A DNA stretch of 64,000 nt, from NCBI GenBank assembly GCA_036172245.1, contig JAYWIR010000019.1, positions 2,418,001-2,482,000 of the forward strand, written 5' to 3'. Positions 13,400 through 62,600 of the stretch are shown here, piece by piece; within the stretch, counting starts at the first letter, position 1; every line of letters begins with the position of its first letter. The position numbers and the translations under genes were made by a program. The notes beneath the pieces are model-generated. The model did not search any database, was not told the DNA's origin, and saw nothing but the letters and a program-made list of their open reading frames with translations. This DNA comes from Raillietiella orientalis. Taxonomy: Eukaryota.

Positions 13400-15960
13400 C
13401 CCGGCGAGCTGCGGGTCCGAATCCCCTCCCCCCCTTCCGTTTGCCACACAGCGCGTGGGCGCAGGAACGCGCCCTTGCCACTCTGCCAATGCAAATCAGT
13501 AGATCGCGACGGCGGATCGCACCCAGTGGATGCAGCTGAAAACCTGCATCCGCGCGGATCCAGTGCGAAAAGTGTCCTGCCTGGCAACTGCTCCCTCTTT
13601 GCCCGTCGCGAGAAGGGAGAAGTCGGAATCGAACCATCGCGCGTCTTTGTGACAGGCTGTCAATAGGATTTTACGTCATTTGTTGGTTCCGCACAAGTCA
13701 CGAGAGTTCCCACTGCATCTTTTCTTCCCCCCTTCCCCCCTCCATCTCCTAACGGGACTGCGAACACTCCACCGAGATTTTCCGTTTGGAAACCGAGTCC
13801 TCTTTGGTACTCTCCCTGCGTCCGTCCAACTGGGAGGCTGCGCGGAGGGACGCCGTGCGCAAGACGCTTCATCGTTGAGCGGAGCAGGGGTGCCAGGCTG
13901 GGGCGAGCTACCCCCATTGCTCTCACGAGTTCCGGATGCCCGCAAAGCTTCCGGATCGGCAAGCTGCCTTGGTGGAACGAGAAATGTGGTCCTGCTGACC
14001 GAAGAGGAAGCTGGAAGAGGAGCTGCCTTAGACCCTTTTCCCAGGTTCCAGAAGGACACTCTCCCGGAGGAAAGGAACACCTGACCAGAGAAATTGCCAA
14101 CTCTTTGGCGGTGTTCCAAGTTGTACTGCATGCAAAGCAACTTCTGCAGCAACGTGACCGTCAGGGAGTTAGTCGTCCAAGGCGCTGGTCGCTCGGCTCC
14201 CGGCGACTCAGGAAGAGACGCCTCGTGGGAAGGTCACTCCGTAGTCAGAGGAGAGAGTAAATCCCTCGGAATGGGCTGCATGCACTAGAGAACACGAATG
14301 TTCACTCAGCAAGGGTCCTCCTGATGGCAGGCCTTGGGAGGGCCCATCGACGGGAGTCCGCAGAAAGGAACGAACCTCACGCTCAAGAAGAATCCATCCA
14401 CTTCTTCGACGGTGTATCCGAGACGCACGTGATGGGTCCAGCTCGTCTGCGACCAAGGAAGACGGGGGACGGATGGCTTAGAAGAAGACGTGGCTCTCTC
14501 GAGGAGCAAATGAGGACGGGCTGACGGCTGGCTGTGCCGCTCCTCGGATTTGCTTACTTTTTGTGGACGGAGGGGCCGCCGGTGTTCTTGCAAGATGGAG
14601 GGCCCTTCTCTCGTGCTTCCCGCGGCTTCCATCTTGACCCTTTTCTCTTCTTCCTCGGCCGCGCGGACCGCATTCCCCGTCGCACAGTCAGCAAGCGCGA
14701 CATCGCTTTCTGTTGAACGCCCGAGGCAGGAGCGCTCCCACACCGGGGTTTCAGAAAATTTTCAGCGGGAGGAGAGACAAGTTGGGAGAGCAACCCTCCT
14801 CCTCGAAACGTTCTTCCTTCACGGAAGAGGGAAGCAGGAGGAGAATGGAGCAGTTCCGAAATCAGGACTGACAGCAGCAGGGTGGGCGCAAACATAGGTG
14901 CACCATAGGTTTTTTGTTTGGCTCCGGGGCTTGTGGGGATGATTGATGAAGTTCCAATTGTTCCGTAAGGCCCTTCGGAGTGCACTGCAAACCGGAAACC
15001 CAAGGCAAGTCTGCCGCGCGGCCTGTAGCGACCGGGTCCGGAAAGGAATCCTTCCTCGGTTTTCCTGCGAGATCGCAGGCAGGCGGAAACTGATGAGTGA
15101 ATGGACCATGGGACAGTTCGCGCATGTGGCAACCCCGAGTGCCCTTCCACGAGAATCACAGCACTGGGGAGAGCTGCCCAGCATTCTTAGAGAAGACCTG
15201 AAGTGGCTCCCAGTGCACAACAACAGCAGCACCCTTCCCCTGAAGTGGCAGGGGTCGGCACTAATGCTGTTGCAATGGGATTCCCCCTGAAACGCCCGCC
15301 GACATCACTGAACGCTGAGGAGGGCGAACCCGGACTGTCTCACGTGCGGGGAACGCGAATCCTCTCTCTTGCACCTGCTCGTGGACTGTGTTGTCCTCCG
15401 GTCCCTGTGGTAACGTTTGGGACCGGCCATCCGGATCCCGGTTGACACCCCCGGGGACTCTTTACGGCTCCTCTTTGTGCGGGACGCCCTGCAGTCAGCG
15501 GTCAGCCGCAGCCCCAGCAGCGCTTTGCTGTAGTTGCGGGATTATGGCGGTCTGGACTCGAAGCCGAGAGAGAAAGGGACGAGAGGGACATCGTCCAGTT
15601 CGTAGCTCGCTTCCTGAGGATAATGGTGGACAGATGGCCCCACCTGGGACCTATTCGAACGGATCTTTCTGGCATCCTGGAACAGATGAAAATTCCCTCC
15701 AGCGGACAGTGATCCCCTCACGACCCTCCAGATTGCTCTTATTTATTTTTATTTATTCTTTTGTTTTCTTTTTCTTTTTCTTTTCTTCCATCCCTCTCTG
15801 CTGCCGAAGTAAGCCCGTCGGTCTGCGTACCGGTGACCCGGCAGGTCCATCGAAGAATCAGTCGTGTGTGTGTGTGTAGGGGGGGGGGACTGCGTGCTCC
15901 ACCATGAATGTTGTAAGTTTGTTGCTTTGATTCAATAAACGCCCCGGCGTGGCAATCCCG
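13400..15960 (+). mobile_element. L1/Tx1-clade non-LTR retrotransposon family B, copy 1 (decayed RT, C-terminal CCHC and 3' UTR)
   Basis: LHP...VLPG (IHPxQxGFVPG), RGARLG/ELPPLL (RGxRQGxPLSPLL) and KSLGM (KYLG); CLTCGERESSLLHLLVDC (CX2CX8HX4C) at 15336-15389; T-rich 3' UTR and AATAAA at ~15934. Confidence 0.8.
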
Positions 15961-15969
15961 CTCTCCCTC

Positions 15970-17190
15970 GGAACCAAAGGGCCCGCATCCTACCTTTTGT
16001 GCTCCGGCCGAAAGGTGAGAAGGTACGGACTCTTCCACGGACGGATGATCACCATGGCTAACGAGAACAACTGGATGACCTGTTGCCACCGCAAACTCTA
16101 GCGCCTGGATGGAAGAAGAAGCAGTCTGCACGTGGGCGAAAATAAATGAGCCCAGCTCGGAGACGTCAAACCTCCTGCGATTCAGCAGCTACGCTCGCTG
16201 CGGAGGACCGTGGAGAGTCCCAGCATGAGCGAGTGAGTGGAGCGGACCCCTCTTGCTGCAGCGATGCCTTCCCTGAAGAAGGCAGTTGGCAGCGGCGAAC
16301 AGCCAAGGTGGGAGGTCTCCTGTGAGATCTCAGAAAGGAGGAAGGAGATGAGCGGTTGTACCATGGGGCAGCTGGCGGATGCTGTGATGCCTTTCCACGA
16401 AGACTTCAACGCTGGGGCAAGCTGCCCGGTGTTCCTTGCGAAGAATTCCTTAAGTAACTCACAGAGTTCGTGGACAGCAGTAGCAACCTCCCTGCGAAGT
16501 GGCAGGAGTTGGTACTACTGTTGTTGGATTGTATTCTTCCCTGCAACCGACATCATTGGACACTGGGGAGTGCGAATCTGGACTGTCGCAGGGAATCTCT
16601 CGGGAATCTCTCCTGCACCTGCTTGTGGACTCTATTGCCCTCCGGACCCTATGGGAACGTTTTGGGACGACCCTGCAGACCCCAGTCGGTCAACCTCAGG
16701 GACGTTTTACAGCTCCTCTTCGTGCGGGATGTCCTACAGCCAGCCGCAGCCTTAGCAGCTCTTTGCTGCATCCACGGGGTTGCGGCGGCCTGGAGAGACG
16801 CCGAAGCAGGTCCGAACGAAAGAGATGCCATCAGAGATTGCAGTTCGCTTTCTACGGACAGCAGCAGTCAGATGGCCCCTCCTGGGCACTAGGCAGATGG
16901 ACCTTGCCGGCACCCTGGAAAGGATGCAGAGGACTCCTCCCTCCAGCGGGAAGTGATCTCTTCCCATCCCTCCAGAGTGTTTTTATTTATTTATTTAATC
17001 TTTGTTTTTTTTCCTGCTCGCCGCCGCTGCCTAGGTGAGCCTCGCCGGTCTGCGCACCGGCAACCCGGCACGTTTCTGGTAGATTGGAACATGGTAGGAC
17101 TGCGTGTCTCACCGTGGGCTTTAGCGAGTCGGGTGTTGTTTCAATAACCTCCCCAGCGTGACCGGGTGGCGACCCCGGTTTCCCTCGCGC
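15970..17190 (+). mobile_element. L1/Tx1-like family B, copy 2 (5'-truncated, head-to-tail with copy 1)
   Basis: Colinear similarity to 14870-15960, including ESLLHLLVD, LLFVRD, AALCC, CAGATGGCCCC and the T-rich 3' UTR. Confidence 0.8.
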
Positions 17191-51010: not shown

Positions 51011-53015
51011 TTCCTTTTTTGGGGGTTCCTCAAAGTGCTAAAGAACCGTTCGCTCCCCGAGGGGGAGGGGGACTCGCAGAGCTCTTTAATGCTGTCCACG
51101 CTACCCCAGGGTGCGTGCAATCCTTCATCTTAGGGGGTCATTTTTGGAAGAGACCACCCTATGAACCCAGGATGGCTTCCTCTCACTCTTCCTCGTTGTC
51201 TCCAGAGGGAGCCCCCGGAAAGGATCCGCTCCTGAAATTTCTTCGGAGGGAATCCGCAAGGGAACCGCTCCTTGCTTACTCCTCTGACAAGAACTCCGAA
51301 GGGACGCTTCCTGATTTCTCCGAAGGATCGCTCCCCGAACAGCACGCTTCTTTGCACACTGGAGAGGTATCAGCCCAGCAGCTCCATGGTACAAGACGGA
51401 CGGTTCATCCACGAGGGGGAAAGGGCGACTCCATTTTCACAATCAGAGGGGAACCCGGAAGGAAATCGGTGCTCCTTGGTTCCTGGAAGGAACCAAGGAG
51501 AGCCAACTTCCAATCCCTCCCACTCAGCGAGGGCATCCGGATTCCACCAGTGCCGCCAAGGAGATGCAGCTCCGGTTTCAGACACTTGTCCTCGTGACAA
51601 ACCTGTGGAGTACCACCTGGTGCAACCTACACGTCTTCTCGTCCAGCAGATCACCGGCAGCGTGGGACTGGCGTCCTTCCTTGCTCACCCTCCACTCAGG
51701 CTCATCCACTGCGGACTGCACCTTCAGCAGGTGGCCATGCTGGTCAGGAAAACGGAAGGATCTCGTGCCACCCTGCGAACAGTAGTGCCTGGTTGCAGGG
51801 AACCGTTTGCACGTGGGCTAGGACCCGGGAACCAAGAGACCAAGTGTGGAACAGGTACGACGTTTCCTGTAGGCGCCTAACAACAACTGCACGCTCCGGG
51901 ATCCTGGAAGATCCTGCGAAGAGTGCATGGGAAAGCAGAACCTCCCTCGCCGCCGCGCTGCCCTCTCTTAAGGAGCATATGAACAGCAGTCTTACGAATA
52001 GATGGGAGGTTGCTGCGGAAATCTCCGGAAGAAGGAAAGGACGGGCAAGCTCACCGACGCTGCAACCCCGATTGCTCGACCTCGTGGACTTTTGCTCTGG
52101 GGCGTGCAACTGGGTATTCCGGTGGAAGACCTTCAGTGGACCCCAGTACTTCAGTGGACATCCGTACCCCCCCTTTAAAGTGGCAGTAGTCGGAGTTGAT
52201 GCTGTTGCACTGGGGCCTCCCGGCATCATTGGACATGGGAGTGTGTGAATCCAAACTTGTGTGCAAGATGCGGGTAGCGGGGATCCCTCTCACACCTCCT
52301 AGTGGACCGTGTTGCCCTCCGACCGCTGTGGGGATGCTTTGCCGCGCCCCTTGGAACTCCCTGCGTCAACTCCGTAGATGTGTTAAAATGTCTCTTCCTG
52401 CACGACTCCCTCACGACGGCCATAATCCCAGCAGCACTTTGCTGCCCACGCGGCGGGATCGTGGCTGCATGGAGCAGCAATGCCAGAGGAGGCCAGGACG
52501 ACAGGGACGTCATCTATTTTGCTGTCCTCTTCATGAGGGCAGCGTCAAGATGGCTTCATCTGGGAGTCTTGAAGCAGAAACTTGCCGGTATCCTTACAAG
52601 GATGCAGAGGACACCCTCCAGCACACGGTGATCCCTTCCCGAACCCCTCCATTTTTTGACTGTATGTTTTTCGTTTTATTTTTTTCTTTTTCTCTGTCTC
52701 CCCTTCCCCTGTACTGCCGGAGCGAACCCGGCTGTCCTGTGTGCCAGTTCCCGGCAGGTTCCTCCTCGTATTTACAAGTAACGAGACAGGATCAAACGTC
52801 CTGCCACTGACATGTATGTTTATTTCATAAATAAACGACCCGGCGTGACCGGGTGTTAACCAGTACTGCACCCGTGCCACCGGAAGCTCAACCAGCAGGG
52901 GGACTCGAAACACACGATTCACTCATGTCTCAGCGTCGATCCTTCCCCGGGCGGGATTTGAACCCGCGATGCTTGGTGATGCCACGCGTGGGGGAGACTG
53001 CAGCCACGAACGTCC
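51011..53015 (-). mobile_element. SINE-like family A, copy 2 (51011-51556 + 52859-53015), interrupted by L1/Tx1-like copy 3
   Basis: Colinear with copy 1; B-box GGTTCAAATCCC at 52953-52964 (minus strand); the body resumes after the insert. Confidence 0.7.
51557..52858 (+). mobile_element. L1/Tx1-like family B, copy 3 (5'-truncated)
   Basis: Similar to copies 1 and 2 (HLLVD, PAALCC, RWLHLG, T-rich UTR, AATAAACG..GGCGTGACCGGG end); flanked by the degenerate duplication ACCAGTGCCGC (51546-51556) / ACCAGTACTGC (52859-52869). Confidence 0.75.
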
Positions 53016-54343
53016 GGACCTGTCCACCTTCCCCGCCATGGGCAAAGCCGGGAGGTCTCCCAGGAGGCTCGCGTCCCCCCCTTCTCTCCGACGAGAAGTC
53101 TCTACCCGCATGCGCGCGGCGCCAACGCGGGCGTGCAGTCGACAAGGACCATTCGGAAGTGGAGCCACTCTGCCAAAGAGATGCTGTGCGAGGATCCCTG
53201 GTATCCTGGCGAAGCGGGGTCGGAGGCTTCGGAGAACGAGGGCGTGCGCGCCGAGCCGGGACAGCCAGGGGCCTTCCGGTTTGGTGAAATTTTTGGAGAC
53301 CTGAACCCGGACTGGGGTTTCCAGATGCTGACGCGAGGCGCAGCAGCTCCCGGAGCCGGCAGCCGCGGTGTTCGATTCTTTCGGGGGTGCTCCGCGCGCT
53401 GAAACTCCGCGATCCGAACGCGAGTTCGAGAATTTTCGATTCCGGGAACCCTCCGTCCCGACCTGGAGGGGGAGGGAAATTTCTGACATCCATTTCTCCA
53501 AGCGCGTGGGCGCTTCCAGCTTGCTGGTGTCCGTCGAAACATGGATCCGTGAAGATCGGGGATCTTTCAGCCCGCTGTATCCGGAACCTCAAGGAAGGAA
53601 GGCGGGGGAAGGCAGGGGAAGGGAGAAGGGAGAGAACTCGCATCCGAAAACCGAGGTTTGTCTCGGGATAATCCGATTTTCCGGGGAGGAAGAGGAGAGC
53701 CCGCATGCCACTCCGCTCCGGATTCATCTTCATTTCTGGAGATGGGCGCAGCCGAGCGGGCATTGGCTGCCTGCGCCTAATTAACAGGTCGCGACCGCAC
53801 TCGCGCAAGAAACGATGATGAATTTGTTCTTTCCGCAGGAAGGGGGGGAGGGGGGAGGAGGACTTAGTGTCCTCGGAGAGGAGGAAGAGGAGGAGGAGGC
53901 GATATTCCTTTCGCTCGATGGCAGCAGAAAGCGGCCGCCGAATTAGGATGCCAAGGCAGCGGCGGTGGCTCCTGGTTCGACAGCGTGTCGGGGGGCCGTT
54001 CACCGTCCCGGAAGACTTGGCCCTCCTGGATGTTCCTTAATTCCTCAACGCGTCTTCAAGAGCGGCACGGCGAGACCCTGCTAGTCGGCAAGCTCTCGCA
54101 GCATTTCTGGACTGCTCGTAGCGGCAGCGGGATTCCCGGTAGCCTAGTCCACGGATTTTTTTGTGTTTCCCTACTCCCCCTTCTTTCTCCAACCCCTGTT
54201 CCCCTTTTTCCACCAAAGATGTAGCTTTCTCTCTTAAGTATACACTGTATACCATTACTTACCTCATATTTCACCAATTCCACATTATACCGTTATCATT
54301 TATTTTGGGAAGTACTATATAGTTTCACGTTTTCCTTTTTTAC

Positions 54344-54445
54344 TTCGTTCCGACTTACGAGTCTGCAGTGCCTGACTTGCTTTTAAAAAGTGGGGCAGCT
54401 ATGCTCGGCAAGCTCAACATGGATGAATTTGTCATGGGCTCTGCA
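54344..54445 (+). pseudogene. gatA: Fragment of bacterial Glu/Asp-tRNA amidotransferase subunit A (amidase signature region), probable endosymbiont-derived insertion
   Basis: FVPTYESAVPDLLLKSGAAMLGKLNMDEFVMGSA matches the GatA amidase-signature segment (F.P.YESTV...GA..LGKLNMDEFAMGS); similarity stops abruptly on both sides. Confidence 0.85.
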
Positions 54446-55773
54446 GGTTCTTTCCGCAGTCTGATATGGCAGCTAATTTGCCAAGCCGCATTATATTTGT
54501 TAGGCGGTCTACCTTTGGAGGTAATAAGGATGGTCTTGACGGACTATCGGAAATACGGAGCAGTCTTGGAGGTGTCGAAACGGCCTCGAAAAACATTCGC
54601 TCAAAAGAGCTGCTGCCAGAAGCCTTCCTTTGTCACGCGCGCGCGCGCGCGCTCATACACACACAAAAAACACGTTAAACCAGGCCGTTTCGCAAGGATG
54701 AAAAGGAACGCATGCACGCACGTACGCGCACACGCGCGCGCGAAGTGTGTGTTTTCCCCTAGCTTTCCACAGTGATCCTCTCCATCCATCATGTCGGATC
54801 CCGCAGATGGGAGCTTCTTCTCAGATGGCCCCCTCGCCGATGCTTTCCGATCTCCGCTGCAACCTTCCTTGATCTCCACGACTCGCCGAGGTCGGGTGGT
54901 GCGGCGGCCGGGGAGAGTCCCGCGTGCGGCCGGATGCGGCTCCCGATCTCGCTCTTTGCGATCCCGAGGCTGCGATTTGGAGCCCGAAGCAGGGATGCAG
55001 GTGGCCCTCCGCTCGGAGGTTTCTCACCTCCCTCCCTTATCCGGGAGAGGTTGCCCTCCCGAGATGTCGACAGTTTCTCCCACCCGGGCAAAGCGATCCG
55101 TTACTCCCGCGCCCTCTCGGCGCTGATGCTGCGGGTTCCTGCGCTGCTCGGAGACGAGTGGAAATCTCATCGGAGGAGGCTTGCGCGCGCGCTCTCCCCG
55201 TTTCGGTTCCCTCCAAAAGGCGAACCCGTTCCTGTTCGCTTAGGAGGTAATTGGCCATCGGTTACGTCCGAGATGGTTGCAGCAGCATCCGAGCGAACGG
55301 CCCTGTAGGCCACAAATCAATGCAAATGAAGTTCTTCTCCCTTTCAGCTGCATGAGCGCGGCTCAGCCCCGAAGACACCCTGCTCCAGCAGGGCTCTGCG
55401 AGTGGCGAGCTGTGCAGTGAAGTACGAAGGTGACCATTAAGGAGATGGCGCTCATGACTGCATCAAGATACGAAGGCGCGTCAACGTCTTTTTTTTTTTG
55501 AAGAAAAAAAAAAAATTTCTTTTAATTACTTCTTTTCGGGTTTCCTTTTTCCTTTTTCTGGTTCGCCGAGTGCTGAAGAACCGTCCGCCTCCTCGGGAGG
55601 GGCTCGCGAAGCGCTTTAACGCTGTCCGCTCCACCCGAGGGTCTACGTAACTCTTCGAGATAAGGGGGAGTACCTCTATCACCCCTATGACCACCTTAGG
55701 AATCCGAGAAGGACTCCGGAGGAAGGAGTTCGTTCCTGCCACACTTAGGAGGGAACCTCCTCCTTGGTGGTCT

Positions 55774-56690
55774 GCGATTTCTACCCGGACACGCCGTAGG
55801 CGTTTATTAAAAGTGAAAACAAACTCCTATACTGTAGTAGGACTCTGGTCCTATCACCCTCAGTCGGTCCACGCGCCTGTCGGGTAGCCAGTACGCAGAT
55901 CGGCGGGGCTCCCCTCGACAGCGGAGGAGGACAGGAGAAAACAAAAATAAAAAATAAAAAGAAAGAGTAAAGAAAAATAAATAAAATTTTTTGGGAGGGT
56001 CGGGAAGGGACTACTGTCCACTGGAGGAAGTCCTCTGCATTCTTTCCAGGATGCCGGCGAGGACCGTCTAAATAGGTCCCAGGTGGGGCCATCTGGCCGT
56101 TATCCGCAGAAAGCGAACTGCGAACTGGACGGTGTCCCTCCCGTCGCGTCCCCTGTAGGCCTCGCTCCAGGCCGCCGCAATCCTGAGGATGAAGCAAAGC
56201 GCTTCCGGGCCTGCGACTGGCTGCACAGCGTCCCTCACGAAGAGAAGGGGAAATCTCATCGGAGGAGGCTTGCGCGCGCGCTCTCCCCTCGTAAAGAGTC
56301 CCTGGGGGTGCCGACCGGGATCCGGATGGTCGTCCCCAAACGTTCCCACAGGGGCCGGAGGGGCCGTTCCCTGCAGTCCACGAGCAGGGATTCGTGTTCC
56401 CCGCACGTGCGACAGTCCGGGTTCGCCCTCCCCAGCGTTCAGTGGTGTTGGTGGGCGTTGTAGGAGCAACCCGAGTGCAACAGCAGAAGTGCCGGCTCCT
56501 GCTGCTTCAGGGAGAGGATGCTGCTGTTGAGCATCGGGAGCCACTCCAGGTCTTCGCTAAGAATGCCGGGCGGCTCTCCCCGGCGCTATGGTCTTCGTGG
56601 AAGGGCACTCGGGCACTCGGGGCCCCAGCTGCCCGATGGTCCATCCTCACTCATCAGCTGCTGCCTGCGTGCGATCTCGCAGAAGACTAG
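55774..56690 (-). mobile_element. L1/Tx1-like family B, copy 4 (5'-truncated, inverted)
   Basis: The reverse complement closely matches 15060-15950 (CCCGGACTGTC.CACGTGCGGGGAAC.CGAATCC; VQFAVRFLRITARWPHLGPI); degenerate flanking duplication CCTTGGTGGTCT / CCTGGTGCTCT. Confidence 0.8.
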
Positions 56691-57025
56691 CCTGGTGCTC
56701 TTCGAAGGGAACCACCTCTTCCTCATTCTCTCCAGAGAGAACCCTCGGAGGGGCCACTCCTCTTTTCTTCTCCGGAGAGAACCCGGAAAAGATGCGCTCC
56801 TGGAATTTCTTCCCTGGAGGGAACCCACAAGGGAACCGCTCCCCGGTTTCCTCCTCTGGAGGAATCCCGAAGGGACGCTTCCCAATTTCCTCTGAAGGGC
56901 GCTCCCCGAAGGGAGCAGGGCGCTTCTTCAGATTCTGGAGAGGTATCGATTTACAACCCTCCATTGGTACGCGATGGAGTATTCCCCCCAAGGGTGGGAG
57001 GGGGGAGACGGCTCCATTTTCACAA

Positions 57026-59239: not shown

Positions 59240-59670
59240 CTGATGGCAAGTGCTGAAGAACCGTTCGTCTCCTCAGGGAGGGGCTGACAAGGCTCTTTGA
59301 TACCATCTGCGCCATTCGAGGGAGCGCGTGACTCTTCGAGCTAGGGGAGGGGGGGTACTCCGGGAGTGGACCGCCCTATGGATCCAGGAAGGCTCCGGAG
59401 GAAGGAGTCCGTTCCACTTTCGCTTGGGAAGGGAACACCGAAGGGATCCTCTTCCTTAAGGGCTATCCCGAAACGTCGCTTGGATGGGGCCACTCCGAAG
59501 GGAACCCTCCCTCCTTGATTCCTGGAAGGTCCCCGGAAGCCAGCCAACGGGAGAACCGCTCCCTCCTCCCTATGTCTCCCGAGTCGACCCTTCCCCGGGC
59601 GGGATTCGAACCCGCGACGCTTGGCTCCAAGCGCGGAGGAGACCGCGCGGCCACGCGCCCGCCAACACGG
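59240..59670 (-). mobile_element. SINE-like family A, copy 4 (internally deleted, best-preserved tRNA-like head)
   Basis: A-box-like TGGCCGCGCGG (59643-59653) and B-box GGTTCGAATCCC (59601-59612) on the minus strand; the body matches the other copies. Confidence 0.75.
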
Positions 59671-62600
59671 GGGCCGAGTGTTGAAGAGAATGCGTCTTCT
59701 GTTCTGCGAACTCGGAGTACACCAACCGTAGGAACGCGCGCTGCTCGCGAGCAGTCCGTGTCCTCATCCCTCTCGAACGAGCCGTGGCAATGCTGGACCT
59801 CACCGTTTCTTCCTTTCCTTTCTTTTAATGATCCCGACCTGCTTGGACCGTCGGGAGTGCATTCCGCGCACGTTTCCGGTTTCCATCGTTCGAGGTCGTC
59901 GTCGGGAACGAAGTTTCCCTCGAGCGCGGGCACCGCGAGCGTTTCCTAAGAAATCCGTCGACAGCCCAAAGTGTGTGCGAACTTTCGGTTCCCGCCCAAG
60001 GGCGTCCTTAACCTCCTCGTCACTTTGGTCTCTCCTCTCCCTGATCATCCAGAAGAAATTGGAGAGAGAGAGAGAGAAAAGAAAAAAACAGGGCAAGAAG
60101 ATTATGGAATTCTCCACAGCGGTTAGGACACACCTGGTTGCGGTGCTTCTCCGTAACGTGGGTGATGGTGACCGAAAGCACCGATGTGTGATGCACGCTT
60201 TGCTTCCGATCTGCGCTACCTCCAGCAGGCAACGCATCCCCCATGTGATCAACGTTCTCCACGTATGGAGCATGAAATACACCCGGCACACTCCCCCTTT
60301 GTGATGCCGCCGCGCGTGTGCGTGCGTGTTTTCTTCAAGAGCTTGGCTTCCTGATTTTCGTCGACGGAGAGACAAAGGAAATCCGCGGATATTAACTCGG
60401 AGAGGTACCCACGTGCGAGGGAGCGCCAGATTCTGCTTCGTACCCCGGAAAACCCTTTGCCGCTTCACCGACCCATCGTCTCGGGAGGGATGGGAATTAC
60501 TTCTTACCTGCACCCAATTCCCCGCACCTGCCTGCCGTACGCGAAAACTGGTACAGCGCTCTTCCATCCGAGCTACGTCATCGCCACCGCGGTGCTTTTC
60601 CGCGAGGTGAACCTCCCGTGATAATCTGATTCCAGTGATTTTTGTTTTATGCTCCCTCGGCCCCGCTTACATTCGGAGCCTCGAAGAAACGACGGTTCTT
60701 CTTTTTCGTTGCTACGCGGCGCTCTCTCCGTGGGCCTCGTACTTGTTCAGCCGTCAGCCACCGCGCAGCAAGGAGAAAACACGTGATCAGGAGTCCCCGA
60801 TAAAGTCATCCCACCCTTACAAAGAACTGCAGCTCATCTTGAATCCGTGAAACCAAAATCGCCAGAATCTCTCGGGCATGCAGATTATCTCCTGGTTTAG
60901 CTCTCATTTTCCCCTGATTTTCCCGCAGAATCGATTTGTCGGGGGAATTTTCGTTCCCGTTCCATTTTCAAGTCCGTCCTCGAGGAGAGGCGTGTTGGGC
61001 CGTGGCAACACGCTGGAGCTGCTCCTTCTGCCCGCCACCCCATGCCGCGCCGATGCGGCGGGGTTTTCGCGTAACGCACAGCTCAGAGATGCAGAGCTGC
61101 GCGTCCAGGCAACGCCGCAGCCCTCTAGGTGGACCGAGAGGGAACCAGCAAGAATGGATTGACCTTTTTTTTCCCTCCTCCTTAATCCGCAGTGTGGATT
61201 TTCGCTTTAAAACTCTCGTAGTCCTTCAGATGCAAATGAGCGCCCGTTAAAGAGACCTCCCCGTTTCAAAGCACTTTCAGGGAAGAGGGGGGGGGGGACC
61301 CCTCTTATTTCTGAAGCGTTTCAAGCAATGCAGCTTCGAGTGCTTCCTAAAAGTTTGTTTTTTTTTTTTTTTAATTGCGGCCATCCCGACGGCGAACCAT
61401 GAGAGAAACGCGCGCACCAATCCATGCAATCGAGGAAGGGAGTTCTTCGAGGCGCCATCTCAGAGGACCAGCAAACGCCTGCGTTTCAAGACGAGCATAT
61501 CTTTGAACGCGCGGTTCCCAGTTCCAACACGAGCAAACATCTCATTAACTCAGAGGAAGAATCCGATTACGCTGTCTGGGATCTCGAACACGGTGCTCTG
61601 CCAATGTTCAATCCCTGGATCTGCCTCGCAAATTGCGTTTCCCGCGCGGAGAGCACGCGATGCTGCGGACGCGTTCCGTCGAGGGCGCGTTCGTTTAAAG
61701 CCATCATGCAATTCAGCTGCTGAAAGGAGTTCTTCTTTCACATTGCTTTTTATTTACTTTGGTCCCCCAGCAATATGTCAATCAGATGAAGATAGTGAGA
61801 ACGGGCTTCAAAGGAACTGGGAGACTTGTTTGTCAAGATAAGCGGATGACGTCCGGGCGACGGGTTGCTCTTCCATCCCATTATTCTCTTCTCCCTCTGT
61901 TTTCTGCTCACCGATTACAACCGATTCATGAACTGTAAAATGTTTCTATTATTTGGGGCAAAAATCATTGGAAGAATGTCGCGGAGAAATGAAATAATCT
62001 TATCAGCTCCCCATTGTAAACAAATTACTGCTGGAGAGACGGACACCTGGAGGGAAAAATTCCACCTTTCGGGAGGGAGTAACCGGGCAACGAATTCGAA
62101 ACCAAGGCGAAAATTGCCAGAAGTCCAATTACGCAGAAATTCCGTGGTCAGATGAACTGCGTGCGCGGTAGGCGATGGTTTTTTCCTCACCTGACGTAAC
62201 TTCCCGAATTTCAAACGACGTACGTGGCAGGGTGGTACTATCTCGTCCGCTCTCTGAGATCCCCCCACCTATGGGAATCCCGGATTTCCCGGGGGGAAGG
62301 AGAAGACCGCGCAAAGGTTATCTGGAGCTTGCTGGCTTCGGGAGTTGCGAAAATTGTTTCTTCTTCTTCTTCTTCTTTTCCCGGCGCGTTCTGCTCCATT
62401 TGATGCAGCCGTTTCGGCGAGCCTTGAAGAATGTCAACCTGCTGCTGCTGCTTGCATGCGAAGACTGCACAAAGGCCGGGGCAGCTCGAAATCAAAAGGT
62501 CTGCCATCACTTTTCGGGTTCGGGAATGTGTTTTTGGATAAAGTCCGTTTTTTCCTCTCTCTCTCTCTCTTTTCCTTGAGGGAGAGGAGGAAGAGGGAGA

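Follow-up and report, generated by a model that had tools for sequence, protein, structure and literature searches.

How did a short stretch that reads as bacterial gatA come to lie in DNA that otherwise looks eukaryotic, and is it still part of a gene? This is the question raised by the forward strand at positions 54344-54445 of the window, that is, of the whole 64,000-nucleotide (64-kb) stretch of DNA analysed here. A sequence-only reading of the locus had proposed a fragment of gatA transferred from a Wolbachia-like endosymbiont to the host nucleus, and we consider in turn the identity of the fragment, its source, its state and its setting.

Identity of the fragment

Translation of 54344-54445 on the forward strand is free of stops and returns exactly the 34 residues first quoted for it, so that the description of the locus as 34 uninterrupted codons is accurate. 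These codons lie within a stop-to-stop frame of 150 codons (54323-54772) that exceeds the homology: only 54344-54445 is GatA-like, the open frame is preceded by an in-frame TAG stop (54320-54322), and the sequence CAG/GT comes after the final homologous base. The match to GatA is far beyond chance. Indeed, when ten Wolbachia-type GatA proteins were compared with the 64-kb window by tblastn, each gave one significant match (E 1e-12 to 3e-17), the next best having an E of 0.021; the matches span 54344-54451, with one query starting at 54332 and one ending at 54436.

As regards the family, the Pfam Amidase profile (PF01425) matched the 34 residues with an E of 1.2e-5 over profile positions 72-110 of 445, and a stretch of 46 residues with an E of 1.5e-6 and a score of 28 bits, just over the cutoff of 27. 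The whole 150-aa ORF scored 24.5 bits, and the scores for the fragment range over 25-28 bits around the same cutoff of 27. Among the three NCBIfam matches, TIGR00132 (gatA) was the best (E 8.7e-8), above generic amidase and allophanate hydrolase; the alignment covers positions 83-121 of this profile and reaches 31.3 bits against a curated cutoff of 481. A search of the PDB gave 13 matches, the four best of which were bacterial GatA, with residues 99-131 of Staphylococcus aureus GatA at the top (E 1.7e-6), whereas yeast mitochondrial GatA was matched far more weakly (E 0.022). The earlier assignment to GatA rather than to another amidase is thus upheld by both the NCBIfam and the PDB rankings. 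The argument that the motif GKLN, in place of GKTN, marks the sequence as bacterial is weak, T being found at that site in 40 of 172 bacterial GatAs.

On the Wolbachia GatA P0008, the fragment aligns to residues about 100-133, its end falling at 133-135. With 34 codons out of some 490, it amounts to about 7% of the protein and lacks a start codon, the catalytic motif and the rest of the gene. The glycine/serine-rich signature motif of GatA carries the catalytic serines. In P0008, the stretch GGSSGGS...GSDTGGSVRQP begins near residue 158, outside the fragment, and a glycine/serine signature segment was found neither in the fragment nor, by tblastn, in the rest of the 64-kb window. The phrase 'amidase-signature region', which had been used for the locus, is therefore a loose one, as the signature motif proper starts downstream of the fragment. 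With neither TIGR00132 nor Pfam does the match amount to a complete amidase domain that passes the curated threshold. Judged by these profiles, it is a piece of the GatA family and not a member gene.

Relationship to Wolbachia

Searching 5.8 billion proteins through a word index, confined to the longer ones, gave 11 candidates, 10 of which passed. Five of these 10 carry a name, and all five are Wolbachia GatA: they come from the endosymbionts of Muscidifurax, Mansonella, Meromenopon-type and Onchocerca ochengi hosts, and from W. pipientis. By direct count, the fragment shares 27-31 of its 34 residues with the 10 Wolbachia-type proteins. By contrast, in a control set of 401 evenly sampled alphaproteobacterial genomes with no Wolbachia among them, 384 gave a match and the top identity was 71% (the set includes the unpublished genomes G041 and G241, which leave the result unchanged). 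The earlier statement that the fragment is very close to Wolbachia GatA is borne out by this comparison.

Broader searches point the same way. HMMER against 1.84 billion cluster representatives gave 66 matches at an E of 0.001 or better, the best being 73% identical, and the median identity of the fragment to 172 GatA loci (those counted out of 174 fetched) was 62%. Residues typical of Wolbachia are rare in other GatAs at site 12 (L, 2 of 171) and at site 19 (A, 1 of 172). A scan of genome contigs, dominated by matches to a conserved motif, yielded 80 loci, none of them from Wolbachia; in five small genomes that gave no peptide match, identity to P0008 does not exceed 52%. At the order and family level, the searches that set out from G299 and G045 covered 2 and 3 genomes.

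The comparison at the DNA level was made with two metagenome contigs, L095 and L096. The window is identical to L095 at 91 of 102 bases (89%; blastn, ungapped, E 1e-34) and to L096 at 81 of 102, also ungapped. The GatAs encoded by L095 (398 residues) and L096 (481 residues) are 91% and 85% identical to P0008, and both are inside the range of 84-93% found among Wolbachia-type GatAs. Note that the GatA of L095 has an in-frame stop inside its glycine/serine motif, and L095 is therefore used here only as a Wolbachia-type sequence; it may not derive from a living Wolbachia, and could be a dead copy, perhaps inserted in another host, unless the stop is an error of sequencing. Its gatA occupies positions 482-1669 of a 1669-nt contig with a GC content of 0.39. 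We also observed that three short proteins from assembled public runs, P0002 (104 aa), P0003 (181 aa) and P0010 (136 aa), start as N-terminal parts of Wolbachia-type GatA and then continue with residues that bear no relation to it, which is the pattern that a frameshift leaves. These proteins could represent additional gatA copies, broken or transferred, from other samples.

The 34 residues do not suffice for a tree, but they indicate a Wolbachia-like origin, closer to Wolbachia than to the other bacteria sampled. The source could also have been indirect or not Wolbachia itself: an unsampled relative within the Anaplasmataceae, a mobile element, or an earlier insertion in another host. What speaks for this is that the closest DNA match, L095, is a broken gatA in a metagenome contig, and that 34 residues are too few to resolve a supergroup or to rule out a sister genus. 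However, every named relative is Wolbachia, and both L095 and L096 fall within the Wolbachia-type range of identity, so that we regard a source of this kind as improbable.

Substitutions in the fragment

With L096 as the outgroup, lineage-specific changes could be polarised: five are specific to the window, six to L095 and 16 to L096. Those of the window are A>G at 54361 (silent), A>G at 54365 (T8A), A>G at 54370 (silent), T>C at 54371 (S10P) and C>T at 54432 (A30V); four of the five turn A/T into G/C, and the region around them is GC-rich. Residues T8, S10 and A30 do not vary among the 12 Wolbachia-type sequences, and their replacements are hardly or not seen in other GatAs: A8 in 1 of 79, P10 in 0 of 79 and V30 in 0 of 77, as counted in subsets that were not selected on sites 8, 10 and 30.

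That the three replacements are each a single transition at a conserved site, as had been proposed, is confirmed by these alignments. They had also been put down to neutral decay. Of this explanation, the replacement of conserved residues stands, but the rate does not: with five changes in the window against six in L095 there is no excess, and the substitution rate therefore gives no sign of decay. The ratio of replacement to silent changes in the window lineage, 3:2, has no statistical power. A loss of constraint would fit the sites that were replaced, and the data are compatible with neutral decay.

Ends of homology and flanking DNA

Homology stops sharply at both ends of the fragment. Upstream of 54344, the window and L095 are identical at 9 of 30 and 16 of 60 bases, and downstream of 54445 at 7 of 30 and 14 of 60, which is the random level; over the same stretches, L095 and L096 are identical at 25 of 30 and 47 of 60 bases upstream and at 23 of 30 and 49 of 60 downstream. 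Since similarity is at the random level outside 54344 and 54445, the coordinates given by the sequence-only reading are exact to the base.

The left flank (54180-54343) is AT-rich (GC 0.35), is unrelated to the sequence upstream of gatA and contains the TAG at 54320-54322; its ORFs gave no Pfam or NCBIfam match, and it has no second copy within the window. The right flank (54446-54530, GC 0.45) is unrelated to the sequence downstream of gatA and opens with a 13-mer that is repeated at 53826-53838. The fragment lies inside a 350-bp AT-rich island (GC 0.35-0.46) amid DNA of 55-70% GC. No terminal repeats or transposase remnants were found to frame this island, its best inverted pair being 25 nt long with 72% complementarity. 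AT-rich flanks of no recognised origin are what an indirect source might leave; against such a source, the island shows neither terminal repeats nor transposase remnants, nor any Pfam or NCBIfam match.

Elsewhere in the 64 kb, tblastn with the 10 Wolbachia-type proteins gave no other significant GatA segment. It thus finds a single locus, in agreement with the earlier remark that no other part of the gene is nearby. Exons of the QRSL1 type, which had been named as something to check for, were found neither in the 54 kb upstream nor in the 9.5 kb downstream, and the match to the yeast mitochondrial GatA is far weaker than that to bacterial GatA. The absence of any other GatA part in the 64 kb means that the fragment does not belong to an intron-split host gene within the window. 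Two weak GatA-like matches, at 15349-15561 on the forward strand and 56401-56267 on the reverse strand (E 0.03-0.3), were rejected as chance matches in a host interspersed repeat; they are gapped, rich in G, S and P, and disappear with low-complexity filtering. From 51.3 to 57.5 kb, another 101 ORFs, 33-149 residues long, were compared with NCBIfam, and no other bacterial family was found. A homologue search with the 150-aa frame recovered the gatA part only, with no independent record of the junction among the matches.

These results, together with the substitutions described above, bear on whether the fragment could be part of a working host gene, either as an exon of an intron-split gatA of acquired or mitochondrial type or as a 41-codon exon recruited into another transcript. 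The frame is indeed open over 54323-54772, an AG (54321-54322) follows a T-rich tract, and the CAG/GT at the 3' end provides a GT at 54446-54447. However, the window has no other GatA segment on the forward strand, homology begins 21 nt inside the putative exon, conserved residues are swapped for ones that functional GatAs do not use, and the catalytic motif is missing. In addition, the sequence after the GT at 54446-54447 appears to depart from the usual splice donor consensus. Of the explanations weighed here, a working exon seems to us the least probable, and we give it very little credence.

A second copy of the junction

An incomplete duplicate of the 3' end of the fragment and of the right flank lies upstream on the forward strand, at 53817-53838. 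It was recognised from an 11-mer at the end of the gatA part (54422-54432) and a 13-mer at the start of the right flank (54447-54459), both exact, each of which occurs twice in the window against expectations of 0.07 and 0.20. At 53817-53838 the two blocks are adjacent, with strand and order unchanged, 620 bp upstream of the main copy, and 16 nt corresponding to 54431-54446 are absent. The first two of these 16 nt are GT and the last two AG, and there is a GT repeat next to the deletion.

In a lenient local alignment of 53753-53838 with 54358-54459, the bases agree in 66 of the 80 ungapped columns (z 4.9, a value reached by none of 500 shuffles); we tentatively extend the upstream copy to 53753-53838. 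Compared with gatA alone, the upstream copy did not rise above shuffles (z 0). A simple tandem duplication was considered and rejected, because similarity to the right of the duplicated junction (53839-54130 compared with 54460-54720) is not above the level of shuffled sequences either (z 0.5). We read the upstream copy as a small local duplication or a templated repair patch, later than the insertion.

The second copy also bears on the reality of the first. A Wolbachia read or k-mer path might have been misjoined into a host contig during assembly or through contamination, and the 350-bp AT-rich island (GC 0.35-0.46) amid DNA of 55-70% GC is a feature that such a misjoin could produce. A low-depth public DNA run (X1; 0.16 of sampled words) could be read in the same sense, though it decides neither for nor against the junction: compared with 52000-57000, it gave exact contigs at 53541-53710, 54674-54853 and 55100-55353 and none over 53837-54504. 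However, the foreign part is just 102 nt long with non-Wolbachia sequence on both sides, when a chimeric read normally brings far more, and it departs from every Wolbachia-type sequence at three otherwise invariant residues. Moreover, a single false join is unlikely to lie behind the fragment, because the junction between fragment and flank is present twice and the two copies differ; one such join would not create a diverged second junction 620 bp upstream. We therefore consider an artefact to be very improbable.

Genomic surroundings

The window has a GC content of 52%, rising to 55-70% around the fragment; it is heterogeneous, with 0.42-0.47 at about 24-46 kb compared with 0.55-0.65 at both ends. 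The observed/expected ratio of CpG is 0.98 in the window and near 1 throughout, and this absence of CpG depletion would argue against a vertebrate-type methylated genome. When 99 ORFs of at least 150 aa were compared with Pfam, Amidase on the fragment was the sole match to reach its curated cutoff, and one match to Phostensin_N was sub-threshold; the same comparison between 17 and 47.5 kb, where it covered 150 of 154 ORFs with lengths of 75-149 aa, gave no match. Neither recognisable protein-coding exons nor Rfam families were found in the window. In sum, the window looks like gene-poor eukaryotic DNA, and the surroundings of the fragment are non-bacterial. The sequence-only reading had spoken of animal DNA; the results support a eukaryote-like setting, and an animal host is an assumption of that reading.

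An interspersed repeat family is present, with 55876-56500 matching 15845-15250 at 71%. Its copies, at 55876-56500, 15250-15845, 16713-17070 and 52497-52650, are about 70% identical and occur in both orientations, and a 241-residue ORF of this repeat has no protein homologue in the searches made. The sole element reported by the tRNA scan lies at 59591-59673 on the reverse strand; it is tRNA-like, with a 4-base anticodon that has no assignment. A related stretch lies at about 52.9 kb, the translation of which shares a motif that is presumably typical of tRNA-derived short interspersed elements. Simple repeats, (CG)n and (CA)n, form an imperfect hairpin at 54630-54745, where the contigs of run X1 reach a very high depth (265 in that bin). 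Low-stringency Rfam matches to microRNA families at 54630-54743 were dismissed, as they reflect hairpins of simple (CG)n/(CA)n repeats and score well under the gathering thresholds.

Proposed history of the fragment

We conclude, with a probability of roughly 80%, that the fragment is a short dead relic of Wolbachia-type endosymbiont DNA in a eukaryotic host chromosome. The protein and DNA comparisons establish its Wolbachia-type origin, its truncation and the sharp limits of homology, and we infer its nuclear location, its loss of function and the mode of its insertion. In the proposed sequence of events, 102 bases from the middle of gatA would have been captured into the host chromosome from Wolbachia, or from a very close Wolbachia-like endosymbiont, probably through repair of a break by end joining, as for organelle-derived insertions. 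The inserted piece would then be a non-functional fossil, altered at positions conserved in working GatA enzymes, and a later rearrangement of the neighbourhood may have left the degraded duplicate junction that lies 620 bp upstream. The isolation of the piece counts against a transfer, many described transfers being larger or clustered.

Such a relic would mark the host lineage as one that carried, or still carries, a Wolbachia-type symbiont. Combined with the identity of the host and a count of similar pieces across its whole genome, it could help to date and type the infection, and it also matters in practice, as fragments of this kind can cause false-positive detection of Wolbachia by PCR or from reads. 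Taken alone, one more short dead fragment adds little, since transfer from Wolbachia to its hosts is common and well described: it is reported in roughly 20-33% of the arthropod and nematode genomes sequenced (PMC4299567, PMC3798261). The fragment would be of greater interest if the host were outside the known range of Wolbachia or uninfected today. The GC-rich, gene-poor host genome is unlike the usual AT-rich hosts of Wolbachia. It is conceivable, but unlikely, that the host lineage has no known Wolbachia today and that the 102-bp piece with its degraded duplicate is a fossil of a palaeosymbiosis, the sole trace of a lost infection. A variant bolder still would have the open 41-codon frame, bounded by AG and GT, in use as an exon.

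Comparison with known systems

Compared with a functional GatA as represented by TIGR00132, or with mitochondrial GatA/QRSL1, the fragment is alike in that its 34 residues align to TIGR00132 and to S. aureus GatA. It differs from functional GatA in comprising about 7% of the protein, without the GGSSGGS region, and in carrying A, P and V at sites 8, 10 and 30, where GatAs never or almost never have these residues; it differs from the eukaryotic mitochondrial GatA/QRSL1 in that yeast mitochondrial GatA is matched at an E of 0.022 only.

Closer parallels are found among inserted pieces of cytoplasmic genomes. Numts and nupts are short dead pieces of such genomes, with sharp ends and often with local rearrangement or filler DNA. 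The fragment would resemble them in being a short, apparently non-functional piece with sharp boundaries. It differs in its source, a facultative endosymbiont and not an organelle, so that it would also record an infection.

The closest kind is that of the nuclear Wolbachia transfers (nuwts) of arthropods and nematodes, with examples in Brugia malayi (PMC3849323), Drosophila ananassae (PMC4299567), Dictyocaulus viviparus (PMC4046930) and the filarial 'ghosts' (PMC12693587). According to PMC12693587, nuwts range from a few hundred bp upward and most insertions are pseudogenised, that account reporting no strong evidence of function; they are also described as fossils of lost infections (PMC4046930, PMC12693587). 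As in the nuwts so described, Wolbachia-type sequence is found here in non-bacterial DNA, truncated and with disabling changes. The fragment differs from them in its length, 102 bp against the 'few hundred base pairs' that PMC12693587 gives as the lower end, in standing alone in 64 kb, and in the unusually GC-rich DNA of its host. A fossil of a lost infection is what was argued for Dictyocaulus viviparus (PMC4046930), and the same reading would apply here if the host lineage were free of Wolbachia. In its origin, its truncation and its probable decay, the fragment fits the nuwt kind.
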